A stretch of DNA of 32,000 bases from Idiomarina loihiensis L2TR (GTDB lineage Bacteria; Pseudomonadota; Gammaproteobacteria; Enterobacterales; Alteromonadaceae): positions 150,001 through 182,000 of the forward strand of contig NC_006512.1 in NCBI RefSeq assembly GCF_000008465.1. Reading direction: 5' to 3'. Positions 6,051-23,514 of this stretch are shown one piece after another. Position numbers and translations under genes: made by a program. The notes beneath the pieces were generated by a model, which did not search any database, was not told the DNA's origin, and was given only the letters and a program-made list of their open reading frames with translations. Every line of letters starts with the position of its first letter. Positions within the stretch are counted from its first letter, which is position 1.

Positions 6051-6965
6051 ATGAACAATGATTTTAATATTATGTGGGTAGTTGCCGCTGTAGTTGTTTT
6101 ACTTTTACTGATAGCGTCGGTGCGCATTGTGCCGCAGCAAAGCGTGTATTTGGTTGAGTTGTTCGGGCGTTATCGCCGCATGCTGACGCCGGGGCTTAAC
6201 TTTATTATCCCGCTTATTGAGCAGGTCGCTCATAAACAGTCGATGAGAACGCGGCAGCTGGATGTCGATGTTGAGACCAAAACAAACGATAATGTTTTTG
6301 TCATTGTCCGGGTGTCAGTGCAGTATCGCGTGAGCAATGAAACCGCAGTTTATAATGCATTTTATCAGTTGGAAAACCCCGAGTGGCAAATGCAGTCCTA
6401 TGTGTTTGATACGGTGCGCGCACAAATTCCTAAGCAGAACCTGGACGCGGTGTTCGACAATAAAGACTCTATTTCTAAAGATGTAAAAGAGCAGTTGCGC
6501 GATACCATGGAAGAATATGGTTTTGAGATTATTGCGTCGCTGGTGACAGACATTGATCCGGACCAGTCCGTTAAAGATTCAATGAACCAAATTAACGCCG
6601 CAGAAAGAGAGCGCCGTGCGGCAGAACATAAGGCAGAAGCTGAAAAAATCATGCTGGTGAAGCAGGCTGAAGCCGACAAAGAATCGAAAATTTTGCAAGG
6701 ACAGGGCATTGCAGGCCAGCGCTTAGCAATAGCAGAAGGTTTGCGGGACTCTATTGCCATGGTTACCGATCAGGCTAATGACATAACGTCTAAAGATGTC
6801 ATCGATTTGCTGAAATTTACGAATTATGTCGACGTATTGGGTTCTTTCGATACCGCCGCCAGTAAAGTGATTATGCTGCCACAACCAACGGGTCAGCTTG
6901 ACTCCTTATCATCGGATATTTTAAGCGCAATGGAAGCGGCTAAAGACAGTAAAAAAGATGGCTGA
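6051..6965 (+). CDS. SPFH/Band-7 membrane protein, HIR-like (stomatin/prohibitin superfamily)
   Basis: ATG at 6051 is preceded by AAGGA. N-terminal TM helix IMWVVAAVVVLLLLIA. Core motif LDVDVETKTNDNVFVIVRVSVQYRV closely resembles plant HIR and bacterial SPFH proteins. Ala/Glu-rich coiled-coil region. Confidence 0.85.
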   Translation: MNNDFNIMWVVAAVVVLLLLIASVRIVPQQSVYLVELFGRYRRMLTPGLNFIIPLIEQVAHKQSMRTRQLDVDVETKTNDNVFVIVRVSVQYRVSNETAVYNAFYQLENPEWQMQSYVFDTVRAQIPKQNLDAVFDNKDSISKDVKEQLRDTMEEYGFEIIASLVTDIDPDQSVKDSMNQINAAERERRAAEHKAEAEKIMLVKQAEADKESKILQGQGIAGQRLAIAEGLRDSIAMVTDQANDITSKDVIDLLKFTNYVDVLGSFDTAASKVIMLPQPTGQLDSLSSDILSAMEAAKDSKKDG

Positions 6966-8160
6966 AACCTTTCCGCTGTTGGCGGCTCAACCCATCTACG
7001 ATAATAAAAATCGGTTTTATGCGGTTGAGCTGCTTTACCGCAGTGCTTTGAATTTAACAGCGGAAACAGTTGGAGACACAGCGGCAACCAGCGAAGTGGT
7101 GTTTAACCTTTGCGCCGGAATAACTAGTCAAACCGAGCACTATGACGCAACCGCGTTTATCAATGTTTCCAGCGAATTTTTAGTGTCACAAAGCTTTTTA
7201 CCTCTCGAACCGGATAAAGTGGTTATTGAGTTGGTGGAACGAATTAAGCCGACCAGGGCAGTAGTCAATGCGGTTGCGCGTTGGTATGAGAAAGGTTTTC
7301 GTTTTGCACTGGATGACTTCGAGTTTGACCCCGCTTGGGAGCCGCTGCTGCAGTATGCGTCGTATATAAAAGTGGATGTATCGACCCTAACTTTGGCGCA
7401 AGCCCGGGTATTTAAGCAAAAGCTGAGTGGTTTCAAAGGGAAGTGGCTGGCGGAGCGAGTCGAAGACGAAGCCACTAAGCAGGCTTATGAAGAGTTAGGC
7501 TTTGAGTTGTTCCAGGGATATTACTTTGCGAAACCGGCGATTGTTTACGGAACCAGGCTGGAACCCTCATCATTGCAACTGGCAAAAGTATTGTCGCTTT
7601 GTTTTGAGGAAGAGCCTGACTTGACCGAGCTTTCCCGGGTCATTTCTGAAGACCCTCAGTTGTCAGTTTGTTTACTGAAAATTGTAAATAGTCCCCTATA
7701 CCCGACAGCCAGTCCGATAACCCGGGTGAAAGACGTTATTATGCGTTTGGGTATTGAGAAGCTACGGCGCTGGATAGCCTTAATTGGCGCAGTAACAGCT
7801 AGTAGCCCTGAAGCTTCGCGAATGGTCCTGGTGAGAGCACAAATGTGTTATGAACTGGCTAAATGGAAAAGCTCGCCGGGTTTAGATGCCGATCAGTGCT
7901 ATTTCGTGGGTTTACTCTCGGGTGTTGATATTATGCTGGGCGTGGATAAAGCCAGCTTTTTCGAAAAACTGCCGTTATCTGAACAAACTAGAAAAGCGGT
8001 TGAGGATTGTGACGGACCTATGGGGCAATGCTTACGCATTGCACTTAAACTGGAACGTTTAGTTCGAATGAAAGAAGGGCTGGATAAAGTCGACTCGCGT
8101 CTGTTAACGACTTATCAGAGCGTGTCGACTAAAGTACAGGAACTGTTTAATACCATTTAA
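6958..8160 (+). CDS. c-di-GMP phosphodiesterase-type protein with EAL and HDOD domains (YuxH/PdeH-like, COG3434 architecture)
   Basis: EAL-domain motifs are present: ELL (YAVELLYRS), FINVS, VIELVE, LDDFEF, IKVD, AERVEDE and FQGYYFAKP. C-terminal HDOD signature VISEDPQLSVCLLKIVNSPLY. The start overlaps the SPFH stop by 8 nt (ATGGCTGA). Confidence 0.85.
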   Translation: MAETFPLLAAQPIYDNKNRFYAVELLYRSALNLTAETVGDTAATSEVVFNLCAGITSQTEHYDATAFINVSSEFLVSQSFLPLEPDKVVIELVERIKPTRAVVNAVARWYEKGFRFALDDFEFDPAWEPLLQYASYIKVDVSTLTLAQARVFKQKLSGFKGKWLAERVEDEATKQAYEELGFELFQGYYFAKPAIVYGTRLEPSSLQLAKVLSLCFEEEPDLTELSRVISEDPQLSVCLLKIVNSPLYPTASPITRVKDVIMRLGIEKLRRWIALIGAVTASSPEASRMVLVRAQMCYELAKWKSSPGLDADQCYFVGLLSGVDIMLGVDKASFFEKLPLSEQTRKAVEDCDGPMGQCLRIALKLERLVRMKEGLDKVDSRLLTTYQSVSTKVQELFNTI

Positions 8161-14557: not shown

Positions 14558-15202
14558 ATGGGACGTTATACGCGGTTAGCTTTAATCGAACACCAAAAAC
14601 GTACGCAGAACTTAGGGTTGCTTGCAGAATCCTTAGAAATATCAGTCGTCCATCGTGCATTTTCTGAACTGGTTGATCATTCACCAGAGCCCGAGACCAT
14701 GGTGGCTTATTCTCTTGGATCGGAGCAGTTATCTCGTTCCCACATTACCAGTGAAATTGCTGCATTAACTAAAACCTACCCTTTATTTCTAGTTAATGCG
14801 AGAAAAGATGATGTTCGTCCTATTCAAGCCCTGAACCTTGGTGCTCGCGGTATTATTTACGAAAACGACCATTTAGACCGAGTACTGACCGCGATAAAAG
14901 TTATTAGCCAGGGAGAACTCTATTATCCGCGCTCATTGCTTTCAGATAAAATTGAAGAAATGATGCTGCGGCGGCAAGCGGATGACTCTTTTACTACCGT
15001 GTCTCAAATTAACTCCCTTACACCACAAGAGTTAAAAGTTATAGAGCTGGTTGCTACTGGTGCCCGCAATAAGGAAATTGCTGAGCACTTAAATATCAGT
15101 GCTCATACTGTGAAAACACACTTATCCTCTATTTTTCGAAAGACTGGCGCGCGTAACCGGGTAGAGTTACTAAAGTGGTCCAGTTACGCGACATCAGTTT
15201 AA
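14558..15202 (+). CDS. csgD: LuxR/FixJ-family regulator with receiver-like N-domain, CsgD-like curli/biofilm regulator
   Basis: GGAGG SD 7 nt upstream of the ATG. C-terminal LuxR HTH LTPQELKVIELVATGARNKEIAEHLNISAHTVKTHLSSIFRK. N-domain blocks LFLVNA...GARGIIY...GELYYP parallel E. coli CsgD. Adjacent to csgGFE. Confidence 0.8.
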   Translation: MGRYTRLALIEHQKRTQNLGLLAESLEISVVHRAFSELVDHSPEPETMVAYSLGSEQLSRSHITSEIAALTKTYPLFLVNARKDDVRPIQALNLGARGIIYENDHLDRVLTAIKVISQGELYYPRSLLSDKIEEMMLRRQADDSFTTVSQINSLTPQELKVIELVATGARNKEIAEHLNISAHTVKTHLSSIFRKTGARNRVELLKWSSYATSV

Positions 15203-15208
15203 CGCTGG

Positions 15209-15964
15209 TTAACTCTCTGCACGCCAATAACCCATTTCCAGGCCTTTTTCTATTAACTCCACCAGCGCTCTTTCCATCGCTTGCTTTACCGACAATTGAA
15301 CCGGTTCGTTGGTTGAATAACCGCCCTCGAATTCAGCCAGCCGGTTGAGAGATACGTAGCGAAACAGGCCTGCCCGTAGTTCTTGAGAGAACACTTTCTT
15401 ATTTGCTGATACCGACACCAGCACCTGCCCACTATAAACGTCTACCGCTCGTAGGTAGACGGATACCTGATCTTCCCGGTAGAGTTCAGATGCACCAATA
15501 CCAAAATACTCTGCGCCGATACCTCCGGTACTAACATTGGTGTCGTAGCTTATAATTCCGCCCTCCAGCAACAGTCTGGCCTCACTCAATGGAGGAAGTT
15601 CTTTATTGTCGCCTGAGTTATAAATTTTTCGCTCAGTTAACAGATTTTGCAGGTTTTCACGCTCCATAGGTAAGAACCAACCTGATTCCAGTAACATTTG
15701 AGTGAGCATAGAGGTTGCACCCTGAGTTACTGCGGTAGAAAAGCTGGAAACATTAGCTTGCGGTTTATACTGCCCGGTTTGATCTCTAAAGGCATAAACC
15801 GATACCGGAATACGGGTTTGGGGTAATTGTCTTTGTTTCAAAGCCGTCATTGTAGAGCTGGGCGCGTCAATTTCAGCGGGCTGTATATTGATGTCCGTCG
15901 GTTTGGGCATTAACGCGCAGCCGCTCATAACAAGTGAAGCTAGAATGAGGAAAACTTTACGCAT
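15209..15964 (-). CDS. csgG: curli production assembly/transport lipoprotein CsgG (outer-membrane channel)
   Basis: Lipobox VMSGC. Conserved VSVYAFRDQTGQYKP and TQGATSMLTQ-L-SGWF blocks. I prefer ATG at 15964 (GAGGAG SD 7 nt upstream) over the track GTG at 15979. Confidence 0.9.
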   Translation of the reverse strand: MRKVFLILASLVMSGCALMPKPTDINIQPAEIDAPSSTMTALKQRQLPQTRIPVSVYAFRDQTGQYKPQANVSSFSTAVTQGATSMLTQMLLESGWFLPMERENLQNLLTERKIYNSGDNKELPPLSEARLLLEGGIISYDTNVSTGGIGAEYFGIGASELYREDQVSVYLRAVDVYSGQVLVSVSANKKVFSQELRAGLFRYVSLNRLAEFEGGYSTNEPVQLSVKQAMERALVELIEKGLEMGYWRAES

Positions 15965-15979
15965 GATTATTCTCCTCAC

Positions 15980-16363
15980 TTATATTGAAGGCATGGTGAT
16001 AACTGTCTGTTCACCACTGCCGTTATGAGTGATGTAGACAATAACGCTACCGTCTGGCTGACCAACAACTTCAACCGTGTACTCACCTGTGTCGTACAGG
16101 CCTTCAACAATTTCGCCATCTGCAATGCGGCGGGTAAGTGAATTGATGATATTACGCTCTAACGCTTCGCGGAAACGGTCAACAAAAGAGCGGTCGGAAT
16201 CAGGTGCTGAATGAGCATTCTGAGTTTGTGCTTTTTGTAATAAAAAGTTCCCATTCAATGGGTTTCCACCAAAGCTCGGGTTAATAGGTTGATAGACAAT
16301 TTCTGTTGCTGCGGCATTCACTGCCGTAAACAAAAAACCAATGAAGAGCCAACGTAATTTCAT
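15980..16363 (-). CDS. csgF: curli assembly protein CsgF
   Basis: Signal peptide followed by the conserved IVYQPINPSFGGNPLNG motif, which is the CsgG-pore-inserting N-terminus. Typical size (127 aa) and position. Confidence 0.88.
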   Translation of the reverse strand: MKLRWLFIGFLFTAVNAAATEIVYQPINPSFGGNPLNGNFLLQKAQTQNAHSAPDSDRSFVDRFREALERNIINSLTRRIADGEIVEGLYDTGEYTVEVVGQPDGSVIVYITHNGSGEQTVITMPSI

Positions 16364-16374
16364 AATCTGCGCCT

Positions 16375-16752
16375 TTAAAAATTATTATCTTGTGGCGTAT
16401 CAAATACAGAGTCCGCTTTTACTCGCGCGACTTCGTTAATACTGATCAAAATGGCTTTCTCGGCCATTTTTTTGACATCGTTTTGCCGTCTTCCAAAGTA
16501 GGTCTGGAATATCTTGGTTTGCTCCATCTCAACCCACAAATAGGTGCCAGCCTGAGGATAGACCTGCTCGTGAATAACAACGGTAATACCATTGGTTGAA
16601 GGGATGTCACGCCAATAGCTGGTGTAGTAAAAGAAGAAGTCTTTACCGAAACGTGAAATGGTTCGGTCCAGCACCATGCCGCCAAGCTCTATTTCGTCAG
16701 CCTGACTAACCGGAGTAAACAACAGAACGAGTAGAATGAGTTTCTTTAGCAT
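16375..16752 (-). CDS. csgE: curli assembly/specificity protein CsgE
   Basis: Signal peptide, then ELGGMVLDRTISRFGKDFFFYY, which is typical of CsgE. 125 aa. Directly precedes csgF. Confidence 0.85.
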   Translation of the reverse strand: MLKKLILLVLLFTPVSQADEIELGGMVLDRTISRFGKDFFFYYTSYWRDIPSTNGITVVIHEQVYPQAGTYLWVEMEQTKIFQTYFGRRQNDVKKMAEKAILISINEVARVKADSVFDTPQDNNF

Positions 16753-16764
16753 AAAGACTAAGAA

Positions 16765-16793
16765 AGCGGCTGCACCTAAATGACGCAGCCGCT
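16765..16793 (-). terminator. intrinsic terminator/attenuator hairpin between csgA and csgE
   Basis: 9-bp GC-rich stem AGCGGCTGC / GCAGCCGCT with an 11-nt loop. On the minus strand it begins 12 nt after the csgA stop. It is followed by TTTCTTAGTCTTT, which runs directly into the csgE ATG. Confidence 0.65.
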
Positions 16794-16804
16794 AACCTTA
16801 CTTC

Positions 16805-18292
16805 TTAGTATTGAACAACAGTAGCGACGTTATAGTCGCCTTGCTGATATACGCTCATAGTGTTGCCGTCACTGGCTTGACCGCCGGTAACAACGTTGTA
16901 GTCACCTACTTGCTGAATATCAACGCTGCCATTACTACCGCCAACAATGAACGAGCCGCCATCTCCGGCGATAACGTTGCTGTTACCTTCCTGGTAGAAG
17001 CTAATAAGGTTCTCATTGCCACCGATAATGGTGTCTATTAAGTTGATATCACCTTGCTGTTCGGAATCTAACGTGTTGCCTGAGGTTGTGCCTGCATCGT
17101 AAGAGTAAGCAAGAGTGACGTTGCCATCACCAACCTGGCTAGACATGACATCGTTGTCGTCACCAACAAACACAACTTCGGCTGTGTTTGCATCACCGCG
17201 CTGACGGCTTTGGATATCGTTAGAAACGCCCTGTACAGCCACTCCGTTAAAGTTGTCATCACCACGGCTGCTGACCATAATGTCATTTTGCTCACCGTAA
17301 GATTCACCTACGGCAGTGTTGTTATCGCCAGCCTGCTCAAGTTCAACATTATGCATGTCGCCCTCGGTTGCGAACACTGCGTAGTTATTGTCTCCGCGTT
17401 GGTATGCATCAATTAGGTTGTCATTACCAATCATGCCATTCGCGGCTTCAACAACGTTTGAGTTACCTTGCTGCTGAACAACAATAAAGTTAGCTTCGCC
17501 CTGAATAGGCTGGATCAGGAATTCGTTTGCTGAACCGTCCTGAAATACATCGACAAAGTTTTCGTTACCCTCTAAATCACGAGCTATAAAAATGTTCGAT
17601 GAACCATATTGTTGAGCATAAACTTCGTTGTCGTCGCCGTCCGCGCCAACAACACCTGCAACGTTACCATCACCTTCTTGTGATGCTTCGAAGGTATTGC
17701 GGTCGCCCGACGCATTGAAATAGCCTGATTCATTAAGTGAGCCAGACTGTTCACTTAAGAACAGGTTGTCACTGCCTGAAATCTGGAAGTTGCTCCAGTT
17801 GGAATCGCCTGACTGGTAAATTTCTGCTGTATTGTAGTCGCCACTGAGGTCAATGGCGGCCTCGTTTGCATCACCGGACTGCTCAGCAACTGCAGTGTTA
17901 CCGTCACCCTGCAGGAAAATACTGGCCGAGTTCAAGCTGCCTTCCTGGTAAGCTGATAACCAGTTGTCATCACCGACGGCGTCGGCATTGAAAACGTTCC
18001 AGAGTCCAGACTGCTCACCTTCGACCAAGTTGAAGTCGCCGGTAACGTAAGCATAAGCTTCGTGCCAGTCGTCAAACTGCAACAGTGATGTAACGTTATC
18101 GTCACCGTACTGGTCAGCATACGCCCAGTGTGCAGCTCCGGCTTGTTCAACATACACTTCGTTACCAATTTCAACGGCGCCAGCCGATTCTTGATTAATA
18201 ACAGCGATGTGGTTTTCCGCAACGGCACTACCTGCAAAGGCAATGCCTAAAGCAAGAGCGATGGCACTTTTCTTTATTAGTATTTTCGACAT
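16805..18292 (-). CDS. csgA: giant acidic curlin major-subunit homologue (CsgA-like, 495 aa)
   Basis: Sec signal ending AGSAVA. The rest is almost entirely ~11-aa units centred on G-(D/N/S)-x-N with flanking Q/E and aromatic residues. GGAG SD upstream. Lies between csgB-like and csgE. Confidence 0.85.
   Translation of the reverse strand: MSKILIKKSAIALALGIAFAGSAVAENHIAVINQESAGAVEIGNEVYVEQAGAAHWAYADQYGDDNVTSLLQFDDWHEAYAYVTGDFNLVEGEQSGLWNVFNADAVGDDNWLSAYQEGSLNSASIFLQGDGNTAVAEQSGDANEAAIDLSGDYNTAEIYQSGDSNWSNFQISGSDNLFLSEQSGSLNESGYFNASGDRNTFEASQEGDGNVAGVVGADGDDNEVYAQQYGSSNIFIARDLEGNENFVDVFQDGSANEFLIQPIQGEANFIVVQQQGNSNVVEAANGMIGNDNLIDAYQRGDNNYAVFATEGDMHNVELEQAGDNNTAVGESYGEQNDIMVSSRGDDNFNGVAVQGVSNDIQSRQRGDANTAEVVFVGDDNDVMSSQVGDGNVTLAYSYDAGTTSGNTLDSEQQGDINLIDTIIGGNENLISFYQEGNSNVIAGDGGSFIVGGSNGSVDIQQVGDYNVVTGGQASDGNTMSVYQQGDYNVATVVQY
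16808..18175 (-). repeat. protein-level degenerate curlin repeat array (about 40 strand units)
   Basis: Manual parsing gives units such as GDGNTAVAEQS, GDANEAAIDLS, GDYNTAEIYQS, GDSNWSNFQIS ... GDYNVATVVQY. The DNA copies are diverged; I saw no long perfect nucleotide repeats. Confidence 0.75.
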
Positions 18293-18316: not shown

Positions 18317-18724
18317 TCAAAACTGCGTGATGGACATTTCAGCGGCAGAGCCGGATTGTTGGATAGTGATAGCATTGTCGTTACCCAGCTGTTGTAGCTG
18401 AATAAGATTGCTATTACCCAACTGCAGGATGATTGCTGAATTACCGCGTCCTGATTGTTCTGCAGTGACAGAATTATTGAACCCTTGCTGTTCCAGGCTA
18501 AGAGTGTTCTCAAAACCCGACTGAACCAAATACGCGTAATTTTGCTCGCCTGACTGGATAACAGAAGTGAGGTTATAAGATCCGAGTTGAGCAATTTCTG
18601 CATGGTTTGCAAGGGCCTGCCGCTCCAGTAACCCTGCTAGCGCAACAGGAATGTCTTTTGCGACTCCGGGGAGTGAGACAAAAAGCAAAACCAGTGCTGC
18701 TAAAAGTTGTTTTTTGTAAGTCAA
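18317..18724 (-). CDS. csgB: minor curlin / nucleator homologue (CsgB-like, 135 aa)
   Basis: Signal peptide LLFVSLPGVA. About 8 Q-x-G-x-x-N strand units (QSGEQNYAYLV, QSGFENTLSLE, QQGFNNSVTAE, QSGRGNSAIIL, QLGNSNLIQLQ, QLGNDNAITIQ). First gene of the unit. The start appears to be a non-ATG (TTG) codon. Confidence 0.8.
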   Translation of the reverse strand: MTYKKQLLAALVLLFVSLPGVAKDIPVALAGLLERQALANHAEIAQLGSYNLTSVIQSGEQNYAYLVQSGFENTLSLEQQGFNNSVTAEQSGRGNSAIILQLGNSNLIQLQQLGNDNAITIQQSGSAAEMSITQF

Positions 18725-19041: not shown

Positions 19042-21576
19042 ATGGCTAATATTAAAAAGTTAGTCGTTGGTATTTCTATAGCGTTGGCCGCAGGTTCAGC
19101 TGTAGCGGCAACCGATAAGAAAGCTGATGATGATTCATTGCTGGTGATGTTTAAGCAGTCAGTGACGAAAGAACAACGTCAAGACTTAATCAAAAATGCG
19201 GGCGGCAGTTTACGCGCACTCGATGACAGTGGTCGTGATATAGCAATGCGTCATATTGCTGATGGCCGAATTGCTAAAGTTAACGTACGCAATGCAAAAC
19301 AGCGTGATGCGTTAATCAAGCGTCTGTCTCAGCATCCGCTGGTTGAGGTTGCTGAGCCTAATTACGTTATTAGTATTAACGATTCAAAAGATCCCAAGTT
19401 CAATATTCTTGCTACCCCGGATGATCCTGGCTTCGGTGATATGTGGGCACTGGAAAATACGGGGCAGAGCGGAGGTACGCCGGGCGCGGACATTGATGCC
19501 CGGCCAGCCTGGGATATTACGACCGGCGACAGTAATATTGTTATTGGCGTAATCGATAGTGGTGTTGATTACACCCACCCTGATTTAGCCGGAAATATGT
19601 GGGTTAACCCGGGTGAAATCTGCGACAACGGCGAAGATGACGATGGCAACGGTGTTGTCGATGATTGCTATGGTTACTCGGCTATAACATCCAGCGGTGA
19701 TCCAATGGATGAAAACGGCCATGGCACGCACGTTGCCGGAACCATTGGTGCAACATCAAACAATGGCGTGGGCGTTACCGGGGTTAACTGGGATGTGCAA
19801 ATTATAGGTTGTCAGTTCCTCGATGCCGATGGTTATGGTAGTACAGCTGGCGCTATCGAGTGTATTGATTATATGGCCAATTTAAAGGTTAACCATGGGG
19901 TAAATTTGGTTGCGACTAATAACTCCTGGGGTGGCGGTGCTTATTCAGAGTCGTTAAAAACAGCCATCAGCGACAGTATTGATCAGGGTATTATGTTTGT
20001 TTCAGCGGCAGGGAACGATGGTATCGATGCAGACGTTACGGCAAGTTACCCTGGTGGGTACGATCTTGACGGTATTGTGAATGTTGCTAATACAACGCGT
20101 ACCGACAGTATGTCCGGAACGTCAACCTATGGTCTGGAGTCTGTTGATTTAGGTGCTCCGGGTACTGAAATTCTTTCCACTTACTTAAATGATGGCTATG
20201 CAACGGCGAGCGGAACATCAATGGCCAGTCCACATGTTGCAGGTGTTGCTGCATTAGTCTGGTCAATTGACCCAAGCCTGACAATTGCCGAAGTGAAGCA
20301 AATTCTTATGGATTCCGGTGAGAGTATTCCTGCGTTATCGGGTAAAACGGTCTCCGGAAAGCGCCTGAATGCATTAAGTGCTTTAGAGGCTGCCGACCCT
20401 GATCCTGCTTACCGGTTAACTTTGTCTCCGGGCAGACAGGAAATTGTCGCTGGTGACAGCACAACCTTTACTCTGGATGTTGGCAGTATTGCAGATTGGT
20501 CGGGTACCGTTGATTTAAGTGTTGCGGCTGAGCCTGAACTGGATGTTTCGCTGTCCTCAAGTCAGGCTGACGAAGGAGACAGTGTCGATGTACAGGTGAA
20601 TACAACCGATGAGACACAATGGGGTGAGTACAGCATCACTGTCAGTGGCTCAGATGTTGAAACGGGCGAAATTACCCGTGAAGTGAGCTCGGCTGTGTAT
20701 GTTCTGCCGCAAGGTTTGTCAGACTTCTATTATGAAGACGCAGCAAATACGGATATTCCGGATGATGACAATGAGGGTATTTCGCGAGTCATTAATGTGC
20801 CTGAAACGGGTGTTGTTTTTGGTGCGGATGTGAGTGTTGATATTACTCATACCTGGCAGGGCGACCTGATTGTCAGCTTAACCTCGCCTGAAGGTACTGA
20901 GCATGTATTGCACGACCGTGCTGGTGGTAGTACTGAAGATTTAGTGCGCAGCTGGTCTGTTGATACCTTTAATGGTGAAGATATGACGGGTGACTGGACA
21001 CTGACCGTTTCAGATAATGCCGGCGCTGATACAGGCACATTAAATCATTGGTCATTAACGTTAACGGCGGTGGAAGAAGATGATGGTTTGCCGGATGCGC
21101 CGGTTGCCAGCTTCGAAGCCAGTGTTGATGATTTAACCGTAACCTTTAGCAATACTTCGTCAGACAGTGACGGCGATATTGCCAGCTATTTCTGGGAGTT
21201 TGGTGACGGTAGCACATCGACTGAAGCTAACCCGGTTTACGCTTACTCTGAAGCCGGAATTTACGATGTAACATTAACGGTTACAGATGCAACTGAGCTG
21301 TCTGATAGCGTAACGCAGTCGGTTAATGTCAGCATAACGGACATTGAACTGAGTGTTTATCGTGCAACTCATTTGCGTAACGATACAACCTTAGTTGATT
21401 TACGCTGGAGCGGTGCTGCCGGAGATGTTGATCTTTACCGTGACGGTGAGTTTATCGAAACCCTGGATAATTCAGGTCGATACCGCGATCGCTTTAAGTC
21501 AGATGGTAGTGACGTAGTTTATGAACTGTGTGAAACCGGAACAGAAGCTTGTCAGTCAGCTACAGCCAGCTTCTAA
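19042..21576 (+). CDS. secreted multidomain subtilisin-like serine protease (S8) with I9 propeptide, kexin-type P-domain and PKD domain
   Basis: Signal peptide. Catalytic triad contexts VIGVIDSGVD, HGTHVAGTIG and SGTSMASPHVAG, plus oxyanion NNSWGG. P-domain: THTWQGDLIVSLTSPEGTEHVL...GDWTLTVSDNAGADTGTLNHWSLTL. PKD: FWEFGDGSTS...YSEAGIYDVTLTVTD. AGAGGAAG SD upstream. Confidence 0.92.
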   Translation: MANIKKLVVGISIALAAGSAVAATDKKADDDSLLVMFKQSVTKEQRQDLIKNAGGSLRALDDSGRDIAMRHIADGRIAKVNVRNAKQRDALIKRLSQHPLVEVAEPNYVISINDSKDPKFNILATPDDPGFGDMWALENTGQSGGTPGADIDARPAWDITTGDSNIVIGVIDSGVDYTHPDLAGNMWVNPGEICDNGEDDDGNGVVDDCYGYSAITSSGDPMDENGHGTHVAGTIGATSNNGVGVTGVNWDVQIIGCQFLDADGYGSTAGAIECIDYMANLKVNHGVNLVATNNSWGGGAYSESLKTAISDSIDQGIMFVSAAGNDGIDADVTASYPGGYDLDGIVNVANTTRTDSMSGTSTYGLESVDLGAPGTEILSTYLNDGYATASGTSMASPHVAGVAALVWSIDPSLTIAEVKQILMDSGESIPALSGKTVSGKRLNALSALEAADPDPAYRLTLSPGRQEIVAGDSTTFTLDVGSIADWSGTVDLSVAAEPELDVSLSSSQADEGDSVDVQVNTTDETQWGEYSITVSGSDVETGEITREVSSAVYVLPQGLSDFYYEDAANTDIPDDDNEGISRVINVPETGVVFGADVSVDITHTWQGDLIVSLTSPEGTEHVLHDRAGGSTEDLVRSWSVDTFNGEDMTGDWTLTVSDNAGADTGTLNHWSLTLTAVEEDDGLPDAPVASFEASVDDLTVTFSNTSSDSDGDIASYFWEFGDGSTSTEANPVYAYSEAGIYDVTLTVTDATELSDSVTQSVNVSITDIELSVYRATHLRNDTTLVDLRWSGAAGDVDLYRDGEFIETLDNSGRYRDRFKSDGSDVVYELCETGTEACQSATASF

Positions 21577-21663: not shown

Positions 21664-23514
21664 TTAAGGTTCATAGCGCGCTTCAAGATCGACGCCTGAG
21701 TATGCGCTGTAGGCAAAGACACCAATGTGCCAGCGACCTTCCTGAGGGTTGTCGATAGTGCAGACTTCTTCGTTTCCTGCATTATAAGGACGGCAGTCCC
21801 AGTTTGACTGAGTCGGCTGGCTGCCCTGACGCAGGTATAGATCCGCATCGCCGCTGCCACCAGTGATGGTTACTGTCAATGTAGACATGCCAGCCGGAAC
21901 GTCCAGATAGAAGCGGTTCCACTCATTAGTGGACGCTGATAAGTCATCGACAGTGCCACCACCGCCAGATGAGCCGTCATCGCCACCATCATCGCCTCCA
22001 TTATCACCGCCGTTTCCGCCGCCGGAAGCCAGTGCTACTGCCGCAGCGGCATCAACGATACCAGTACCGCAACCGTTGCAACTACCCGGGAAAGAGCGGG
22101 CTGAGTTACGCAGAATCTGCTCGATATCATCTGGTGTCGCTGCAGGATCAGCGGCTTTAATTAAAGCGGCCGCGCCTGCTACGTGAGGTGCTGCCATTGA
22201 CGTGCCCTGGCTGTAGCCGTAGCTATCAGAGCCTGGTGTTGAAGTACCTGTGTTGTAAGTGGACAGCACACCGTTAGGGTCGTTAGCGCTTTGCATTGCA
22301 CCGCCAGGTGCTGCAACGTCAACATTCGAACCATAATTTGAATAGTAAGCGCGATCGCCATTGCGGTCAGTAGAGGCTACGTTAACAACACCGTTACAGT
22401 TACCCGGATTGTAGTTGGTTGAGTTGTCGTTGCTGTTACCAGAAGCCACGACTACTGTAGCGCCGTTATTACGAGCGGTGTTGATTGCATTCTGGGTTGT
22501 GGTGGAGCAGGTACCGCTGCCGCCCAGACTCATGTTTAAGACATCGGCCGGGTTAGCATTAGGGCTTGTTCCCGGAACCGAACCGCCTGAGGCCCAGACA
22601 ATACCGTCGGCAATATCGGCTGTGGTTCCGCCACAGCGACCAAGAACACGTACGGGTACAATTTTAGCGCCATAGGCAACGCCGGCGACACCGGTGGAGT
22701 TATTTGTTTCAGCGGCAATGGTTCCTGCAACGTGAGTACCATGCCAGCTAGAGTCTTGATCCTGAGCCGGGTAACCATTACCACAGGCTCCGGCACTGAC
22801 CCAGTCGCCCGGATCTTGTGCGTCGCTGTCGCGACCGTCGCCGTCATTAGCGATAAAGCTGTCTGAAATCATGTCGTAGCCGGGTAAAATATTACCGGCC
22901 AAATCAGAGTGTGGGCGATAACCGGTATCGAGTACGGCTACAACAACGCCGCTGCCGTCTACTGAATCCCAGGCAGTTGGGGCATTCAGTCCACCAACGC
23001 TCTCATAATAATGCCACTGGTCGTCATAGTTAGGGTCGTTTGGTGTGGCAAAGTGACGGAGAATTTTATTTTCCTCTACGAATTCAACGTCGCTGTCTGC
23101 TTTAAGTGACTGAAGGTATTCTTTTGTTTCTTCCGGGCTTAAGCGGCCTTGTGCTTTTACGACGAAGTGTTGTTGTAAAGCCATGGAACGCTCAAAGGCG
23201 ACACTTTTGCCGGTGCGTTTAGAAAGCACTGAGGTAAAGCCACGCATTTGTTGGGCGACAGCCGCCGCATTTGATGAAGGGTGTTCTGCCGATTGTTGTT
23301 GCATTTGCTGCACAACTTGAGAGCCATCTTTAAGCTTAACAATAAAGCTGGTTGCAGGTCCGTTTGACCGCTCTTTCAGTGATGGCTTTGCGCCATTATT
23401 GCCGTTATCAGATCCGTTCTGCGATAAGGTTTCAGCTGCTACGCTGGTGCCAGCTAATAAGCCTGACAGTGCGATAGCAATTAACGTCTTATGCTGTTTA
23501 TTTTTTGTCATCAT
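21664..23514 (-). CDS. secreted subtilisin-like serine protease (S8) with I9 propeptide, Gly/Asp linker and C-terminal pre-peptidase (PPC) domain
   Basis: Signal peptide. Triad contexts VVAVLDTGY, WHGTHVAGTIA and QGTSMAAPHVAGAAAL. Linker GGGNGGDNGGDDGGDDGSSGGGG. PPC-like GGSGDADLYLRQGSQPT...CRPY...EEVC. Confidence 0.92.
   Translation of the reverse strand: MMTKNKQHKTLIAIALSGLLAGTSVAAETLSQNGSDNGNNGAKPSLKERSNGPATSFIVKLKDGSQVVQQMQQQSAEHPSSNAAAVAQQMRGFTSVLSKRTGKSVAFERSMALQQHFVVKAQGRLSPEETKEYLQSLKADSDVEFVEENKILRHFATPNDPNYDDQWHYYESVGGLNAPTAWDSVDGSGVVVAVLDTGYRPHSDLAGNILPGYDMISDSFIANDGDGRDSDAQDPGDWVSAGACGNGYPAQDQDSSWHGTHVAGTIAAETNNSTGVAGVAYGAKIVPVRVLGRCGGTTADIADGIVWASGGSVPGTSPNANPADVLNMSLGGSGTCSTTTQNAINTARNNGATVVVASGNSNDNSTNYNPGNCNGVVNVASTDRNGDRAYYSNYGSNVDVAAPGGAMQSANDPNGVLSTYNTGTSTPGSDSYGYSQGTSMAAPHVAGAAALIKAADPAATPDDIEQILRNSARSFPGSCNGCGTGIVDAAAAVALASGGGNGGDNGGDDGGDDGSSGGGGTVDDLSASTNEWNRFYLDVPAGMSTLTVTITGGSGDADLYLRQGSQPTQSNWDCRPYNAGNEEVCTIDNPQEGRWHIGVFAYSAYSGVDLEARYEP

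Follow-up and report, generated by a model that had tools for sequence, protein, structure and literature searches.

Can a curlin of 495 residues, with some twenty repeats, no lysine in its mature chain and a net charge of about -71, still be an ordinary fibre-forming subunit? The question is raised by csgA of Idiomarina loihiensis L2TR, which encodes the major curlin subunit and lies in the 32,000-nt stretch of this genome that we analysed (the window; positions below refer to it). An earlier note, made on this DNA from its letters, had described the gene product as a giant, Asp-dominated curlin, and had suggested that fibre formation might be gated by seawater cations or ionic strength, or that the protein might be a single-molecule β-solenoid. 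Our analysis supports a simpler answer. With a probability of about 0.85, the protein is the major subunit, and the CsgA orthologue, of I. loihiensis type VIII (curli) secretion, and would follow the pathway of a fibre-forming solenoid.

CsgA is a curlin encoded in a csgBAEFG operon

The open reading frame proposed for csgA held up at its full length; it is read from the minus strand, which had been left unstated. The protein matched the Pfam family Curlin_rpt (PF07012) with an E-value of 7.4e-42 and a score of 141.4 bits against a cut-off of 20.7, with six stretches passing. The further marks of the curlin family accompany this match: tandem units of about 11 residues, two to each repeat of 22-23 aa, a Sec signal recognized by rule, and csgB, csgE, csgF and csgG as neighbours. 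The genes stand in the order B-A-E-F-G, all on the minus strand, and each of CsgB, CsgE, CsgF and CsgG matches its own Pfam family. This agrees with Table S1 of Dueholm et al. (2012), in which I. loihiensis L2TR is entered with CsgB (YP_154552), CsgA (YP_154551), CsgE (YP_154550), CsgF (YP_154549), CsgG (YP_154548) and CsgD (YP_154547), and with no CsgC. No CsgC homologue was found in the window either (tblastn, E above 3). The CsgD-like regulator scored 66 bits against the NCBIfam CsgD model, under its cut-off. CsgB is only mildly acidic, at -3 per 100 aa.

Repeat register and distribution of charge

The N-terminus of CsgA, MSKILIKKSAIALALGIAFAGSAVA/ENH (the slash marks the cleavage site), combines a basic n-region containing KK, a hydrophobic core and an AxA motif, and by these rules the 25-aa Sec signal named in the earlier note is plausible. 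Residues 1-27 have a predicted local distance difference test (pLDDT) value below 50 in the AlphaFold2 (AF2) model described below. The mature protein, of 470 aa and 49.8 kDa, contains no Lys, 6 Arg, 46 Asp and 31 Glu. Its net charge is about -71 and its isoelectric point (pI) 4.05 or lower, which bears out the earlier description of a Lys-free, Arg-poor and strongly acidic chain. The share of Asp plus Glu (16%) is ordinary for proteins of the window, and that of Lys plus Arg (2%) is low.

CsgA contains 35 strict GxxN motifs, where 6.5 ± 2.3 would be expected (5000 shuffles, maximum 16), and 22 of the 34 spacings between them are exactly 11 residues, compared with 0.07 in the shuffles. Parsed by register, the protein consists of 41 eleven-residue units, or 20.5 curlin repeats, close to the roughly 40 units and 20 repeats that had been counted by eye. 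The unit reads N1-x-ψ3-x-ψ5-x-Q7-x-G9-x10-x11 and agrees with the consensus kernel that Sleutel et al. (2023) give for curlins; the core is a canonical N/ψ/ψ/Q ladder. The Gln at position 7 is present in even-numbered units and missing from odd-numbered ones, which places CsgA among the non-centrosymmetric or degenerate curlins and not among the centrosymmetric ones.

The charge follows the same register. Asp or Glu never occurs at the inward positions 1, 3, 5, 7 and 9. The acidic residues occupy the outward positions 2, 4, 6 and 8 and the arcs, chiefly position 10, directly after the Gly, so that all 77 of them are surface residues, belonging to the two β-arcs or to the outward side of the strands. 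The Asp that follows Gly lies on both arc edges and is stacked in runs of 5-6 rungs over consecutive turns. GDxN accounts for 19 of the 35 GxxN motifs (54%, against 9.8% Asp overall; binomial p 6e-11), and the residue after Gly is thus just "mostly Asp", as had been claimed.

No Gly-rich, N22-like segment was found in CsgA; its mature N-terminus is formed by a degenerate repeat, ENHIAVINQESAGAVEIGNEVYVEQAG. The absence, remarked on in the earlier note, is real but no oddity, since curlins with such a segment are the outliers (Sleutel et al., 2023). Tandem Repeats Finder detected no tandem repeat in the csgA DNA, which indicates that the repeats are old and diverged, and a recent expansion of repeats was rejected on this result. 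RGD tripeptides occur at aa 299, 343 and 365, where an Arg at unit position 8 precedes G-D. Only the one at aa 343 (SSRGDDN) is conserved across the genus, and judging by this pattern the three are probably incidental and without meaning.

Conservation of length, core and acidity

Idiomarina orthologues were collected by a genome scan, and 660 curlin relatives by an exhaustive HMMER search (E below 1e-3); a word-indexed homologue search returned no Idiomarina curlin among the 8000 candidates listed. The exact CsgA and CsgB sequences were not present in a collection of 15 billion proteins, in which the subtilase of the same genome is found with NCBI accessions.

The ten Idiomarina CsgA orthologues are colinear, with 495 codons, no internal indels and 67-96% identity, and the csg synteny is kept in 10 Idiomarina loci. 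Among the species representatives of the genome collection, the nearest are an Idiomarina metagenome-assembled genome and I. rhizosphaerae, at 92-94% nucleotide identity. Net charge in these orthologues ranges from -65 to -78, with 0-2 Lys. The ratio of non-synonymous to synonymous substitutions (dN/dS) is 0.05-0.10 across the genus; given this value and the absence of indels, the possibility that csgA is a pseudogene or a non-functional relic was rejected. Within the units, the Gly is 100% invariant and the Asn that starts each unit 98% invariant; the inward positions together with Gly are 76% invariant, against 26% for outward and arc positions. Conservation is highest over the last 100 residues of the protein, which fits a docking end.

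The residue after Gly behaves as an arc residue. Its mean major-residue frequency is 83%, Asp fills 176 of the 350 cells, and exchanges are with Asn, Ser, Glu and Ala. Of the 19 GD units, eleven do not vary within the genus, and in the other eight Asp gives way to one of these four residues. The expression "all-gatekeeper curlin", used in the earlier note, over-reads this pattern: the Asp in question stands at the variable arc position 10, and it is also the commonest residue at this place in relatives.

Outside Idiomarina, the CsgA proteins of Gallaecimonas, Rheinheimera and Arsukibacterium are 492-495 aa long, with 42-46% identity to the CsgA of the window, 2-6 gap positions and 0-1 Lys. Near-equal lengths at such identity indicate that the length of 20.5 repeats is fixed across genera. 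Curlin_rpt is not listed in the precomputed Pfam annotation of these three orthologues. A fixed repeat number across genera is unusual in a repeat protein. Orthologues from Idiomarina, Aliidiomarina, Gallaecimonas, Rheinheimera and Arsukibacterium are all strongly acidic; over these five genera the mature curlin orthologues contain 0-2 Lys.

To place the protein among its kind, we used 139 long curlin-like sequences from two protein searches, a set chosen by similarity to the query. They have a median length of 462 aa, and 56 reach or exceed 495 aa. Asp is the commonest residue after Gly in this set (30%). The GDxN share of 0.54 is equalled by five of the 139 sequences, and the charge density is exceeded by four. 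The protein thus stands at the acidic end of a continuum and does not form a class of its own. The size had rightly been referred to the survey of Dueholm et al. (2012), where CsgA homologues reach 529 aa and 22 repeats and this very gene is listed.

Predicted fold

An AF2 model of CsgA, built with a 16-sequence alignment, consists of one continuous all-β structure (pLDDT 84.7; predicted template modelling score 0.80) with 40 strands of 6-8 residues, no helix and, in its secondary structure, no capping element. By sequence, the closest solved structure is the curlin R15.5 (PDB 8C50, E 6e-22). From the strand pattern and this homology, a two-sheet β-solenoid is the fold to be expected.

Several observations weigh against reading the protein as a fibre-forming CsgA orthologue. 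The enterobacterial CsgA equivalog model NCBIfam NF007470 gave 86.4 bits, under its cut-off of 160, which indicates that the protein is a curlin and not an equivalog of the enterobacterial protein; the enterobacterial-type traits of a Gly-rich N22 in the CsgA sequence and a downstream csgC (tblastn of the window) are both absent. Foldseek found no significant match of the AF2 model in the PDB, only weak ones to three-sided β-helices (E above 0.01). It also missed 8C50, which the sequence search had found, and its result therefore says nothing on the fold. The two-sheet arrangement was deduced in the way described, and the low AF2 confidence of the N-terminal units makes strand parity, and with it docking geometry, uncertain. 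As a check of head-to-tail contacts, a circular permutant with the C-terminal half fused to the N-terminal half was predicted in single-sequence mode, and it reached a pLDDT of only 51. That the Idiomarina protein would form fibres, bind Congo red and depend on CsgG is a prediction from what is known of the family.

Proposed assembly and the role of the charge

In the assembly route suggested by the family, the CsgA pre-protein would cross the inner membrane via Sec and lose its 25-aa signal. CsgE would pass the unfolded chain to the CsgG channel in the outer membrane, and at the cell surface it would be templated by CsgB anchored through CsgF. There, CsgA is predicted to fold into a two-sheet β-solenoid of 41 strands, whose 20.5 turns of 4.8 Å each would give a length of about 10 nm, and amyloid fibres would arise by head-to-tail stacking of the subunits. 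That CsgA is so extremely acidic and has no Lys is likely the solution usual among marine organisms or halophiles for proteins that are exported. In a system that has no CsgC, the charge probably also keeps unfolded CsgA soluble and slow to self-nucleate, leaving assembly dependent on the much less acidic CsgB. Such a brake on nucleation agrees with work on E. coli CsgA, where added surface Asp blocked primary nucleation but not seeded growth.

The same charge could be read as a switch. In this alternative, the Asp residues stacked along the arcs repel one another unless Mg2+, Ca2+ or Na+ of seawater bridge or screen them, and folding and polymerisation would take place only outside the cell, a behaviour comparable in function to that of RTX β-rolls, whose folding is triggered by Ca2+. 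The net charge of -71, with Asp after Gly on both arc edges over consecutive turns, the 11 invariant GD units, the acidity kept in five genera, the lack of CsgC in the window and the block of primary nucleation in E. coli are all compatible with it, and one report (PMC9900396) describes a control of nucleation by gatekeeper charge state that is sensitive to salt. The best-studied acidic curlin behaves otherwise. R15.5 was picked for its strong acidity (20% Asp/Glu, pI 2.98, with QDGxxN and GEDN arcs), and it polymerises in 10 mM ethylenediaminetetraacetic acid (EDTA), at pH 9 and with Ca2+, its kinetics being independent of pH; Ca2+ affects only bundling and mineral encrustation (Sleutel et al., 2023). 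On biochemistry the earlier note is thus superseded: an acidic curlin, R15.5, has been expressed, and it forms fibrils with or without Ca2+. These data, the failure of NaCl to rescue the Asp-enriched E. coli CsgA mutant and the variability of Asp in eight of the 19 GD units speak against cations being strictly required. Moreover, CsgA has no GGxGxD motif and a period of 11 instead of 9, and an unrelated secreted enzyme encoded next door, the subtilase discussed below, is nearly as acidic (-11.4 versus -13.7 per 100 aa). We therefore regard gating by cations as unlikely. Membership in the RTX β-rolls themselves was rejected, as neither GG.G.D nor G.G.D occurs and the period differs.

Far more remote is the idea that CsgA is a monomeric surface β-solenoid, serving as an adhesin or spacer without amyloid polymerisation. 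The great length of the subunit, fixed across genera, its extreme charge and repeats that are not interchangeable, there being no repetition in the DNA, speak for such a protein. However, the dedicated nucleator gene csgB and csgF are kept at every locus, the C-terminal repeats are the best conserved, the solenoid is open-ended in the model, and all long curlins tested to date form fibres; among these, curlins of 13-46 repeats from Halomonas, Alteromonas and three further species gave Congo-red-positive cross-β fibres when secreted by E. coli (Adv Mater 2026). We consider a non-polymerising CsgA very improbable, and the earlier suggestion of a single-molecule solenoid is not borne out. The fibre-forming subunit of a curli system remains the reading that best accommodates these findings.

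A secreted subtilase is linked to the curli operon

The gene divergent from csgB encodes a secreted S8 subtilase identical to AAV81004.1 of I. loihiensis L2TR. A subtilase of this type (824-844 aa, with prodomain, S8 domain, P-domain and PKD domain) stands beside csgBAEFG at every locus with enough flanking sequence, divergent from csgB across about 300 bp, save at the rearranged loci L014 and L015, where the linkage is still kept. It was found in the nine Idiomarina loci with sufficient flank (L008 ends just upstream of csgA), in six metagenomic loci (from Tara and other sources) with differing outer flanks, and in four of four genomes of other genera, namely Aliidiomarina, Gallaecimonas, Rheinheimera and Arsukibacterium. 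By contrast, about 70 loci that match the S8 catalytic domain alone carry no csg genes. No paper on a link between curli and a subtilase was found in the literature searched.

It is tempting to speculate that curlin and subtilase work as a unit, in processing or trimming of the curlin, in remodelling or dispersal of the fibres, or, with the protease seated on the fibres, as a device to attach and digest. The adjacency amid changing outer flanks, its survival of the L014/L015 rearrangement and the lack of csg genes at generic S8 loci speak for such a unit. Members of the proprotein-convertase P-domain family often cleave after basic residues. If the specificity of the subtilase is kexin-like in this sense, a curlin without Lys and nearly without Arg would resist it, and the mature curlins of this clade do contain 0-2 Lys. 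This specificity is a supposition, however, and E. coli CsgA is also poor in Lys and Arg, low Lys being a general halophile trait; the Lys-free chain may reflect protease resistance or simply halophile composition. All cases may furthermore stem from one ancestral arrangement within a single gammaproteobacterial clade, and the literature searched is silent on the link. A functional unit thus seems rather doubtful to us. We hold equally low expectations for a broader proposal, in which the loci of the five genera and of related uncultured marine bacteria represent a distinct curli subtype: here assembly or turnover would rely on seawater cations, a dedicated protease or both, instead of a CsgC-type chaperone, and the Lys-free surface would be adapted to the protease.

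Next to the first subtilase, at 21664-23514 on the minus strand, lies another secreted one of the S8 family, which has a PPC domain at its C-terminus. Of the Idiomarina genomes, only the closest (L001 and L002) have it at this position, and more distant ones do not.

Features of the locus

The features are collected in Table 1. The listed GTG start of csgG is probably five codons too early: starting at the ATG at 15964 yields MRKVFLILASLVMSGC with a lipobox, and the similarity to E. coli CsgG begins at this ATG.

Between csgA and csgE lies a GC-rich hairpin, with a weak T-tract after the stem, which is conserved through compensatory changes in nine Idiomarina loci; the metagenomic Tara contig L011 has a different GC hairpin at the same position. 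On these sequence features, it is probably a partial terminator or an mRNA (3') stabiliser, through which csgBA may be expressed well above csgEFG. A protein with EAL and HDOD domains is encoded at 6958-8160 (plus strand), past the suf operon and some 6 kb away from the curli genes. From its domains, a role in cyclic di-GMP turnover or signalling is possible.

Table 1. Features of the I. loihiensis L2TR curli locus (positions in the 32,000-nt window unless a locus is named) and related loci
Feature	Position	Strand	Basis
csgA, major curlin subunit, 495 aa, ATG start, stop codon 16805-16807	16805..18292	-	Open reading frame list; Pfam Curlin_rpt, E 7.4e-42
Sec signal peptide, aa 1-25, cleavage AVA/EN	18218..18292	-	Inspection by rule; AxA motif also in orthologues
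Degenerate N-terminal repeat units 1-3 and residues before them, aa 26-65, without Gly-rich N22	18098..18217	-	Unit parse; pLDDT 42-73
Regular solenoid core, units 4-41, aa 66-495	16808..18097	-	Unit parse; position-wise composition
C-terminal repeats, aa 397-495, most conserved stretch, likely subunit-docking end	16808..17104	-	Invariant fraction 0.64-0.76, against 0.30-0.64 elsewhere
csgB-like minor curlin (nucleator), 135 aa, TTG start, net charge -6	18317..18724	-	Curlin_rpt, E 3.9e-19; top tblastn match of E. coli CsgB, 1e-8
GC-rich hairpin, csgA stop to csgE start	16765..16793	-	12-bp stem, -25 kcal/mol
csgE	16375..16752	-	Pfam CsgE, E 3.1e-36
csgF	15980..16363	-	Pfam CsgF, E 4e-27
csgG, secretion channel lipoprotein	15209..15979	-	Pfam CsgG, E 4.6e-82; 42% identity to E. 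coli CsgG
csgD-like LuxR/GerE regulator, convergent with csgG	14558..15202	+	GerE, E 1e-18; CsgD in Table S1 of Dueholm et al. (2012)
Secreted S8 subtilase with P-domain and PKD domain, divergent from csgB, 317-bp shared intergenic region	19042..21576	+	Pfam
CsgA orthologues of Gallaecimonas, Rheinheimera and Arsukibacterium	L098 6786-8264; L099 6810-8291; L100 6801-8288		
Further loci with curli-subtilase linkage	L011, L014-L016, L018, L019, L085, L097-L100		

Significance

The csgA gene, its size class and the operon layout are already known, having been catalogued in 2012. CsgA is an ordinary member of its family in this sense: it was listed then, and comparable long acidic curlins form fibres. 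Since the structure of long curlins, a highly acidic one among them, and their formation of fibres have also been studied directly in the meantime, the finding as first stated matters little. The protein nonetheless offers a clean natural case of extreme acidity and absence of Lys in a curlin, all of its charge being on the surface, and with a repeat number fixed across genera it could help to test the influence of charge and subunit length on amyloid nucleation in seawater. The conserved module of curli and subtilase, which is not described in the literature searched, is the sole element that may be new.

Comparison with known curli systems

The CsgA of E. coli and Salmonella shares with the protein described here the curlin repeat family, the Sec signal, the CsgB, CsgE, CsgF and CsgG partners, the Q-x-G-x-x-N logic of the core and the ending ...VxQY. 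The Idiomarina protein has 20.5 repeats versus 5, and its net charge of -71 (-15 per 100 aa) compares with -6 (-4.6 per 100 aa) for E. coli CsgA. It also differs in having no N22, no csgC and no Q7 in every second strand, and its single csgBAEFG operon replaces their divergent csgBAC and csgDEFG operons. The resemblance to RTX β-rolls (GGxGxDxUx) is one of analogy only: both would be two-sheet parallel β-solenoids with turns rich in Gly and Asp, secreted unfolded, whereas RTX proteins have a period of 9 instead of 11, the GGxGxD motif, another secretion system and Ca2+-dependent folding.

Closer in composition is R15.5, the CsgA of Pontibacter korlensis (A0A0E3UX01). Like the Idiomarina protein it ends on a half repeat, is strongly acidic, bears Asp and Glu both in its arcs and at its surface, and is predicted as a regular β-solenoid. 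R15.5 comes from the Bacteroidota, is centrosymmetric with Gln on both strands, and has 15.5 repeats with QDGxxN and GEDN motifs, whereas the Idiomarina CsgA is not centrosymmetric and has 20.5 repeats with GDxN on both arcs. Polymerisation has been demonstrated for R15.5, while the Idiomarina protein is known here from its sequence. The repeat numbers reported for curlins run from 4 to 62, and secondary maxima lie near 15 and 22 (Sleutel et al., 2023).

A parallel in genetic organization is offered by Alteromonas and Pseudoalteromonas, for which a csgBAEFG operon with a downstream csgD was described (Dueholm et al., 2012). These marine gammaproteobacteria have the same operon layout as I. loihiensis, with csgD on the opposite strand, and likewise a long CsgA. 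One of these proteins, Am18-CsgA of Alteromonas macleodii, formed Congo-red-positive fibres when it was secreted by E. coli (Adv Mater 2026).

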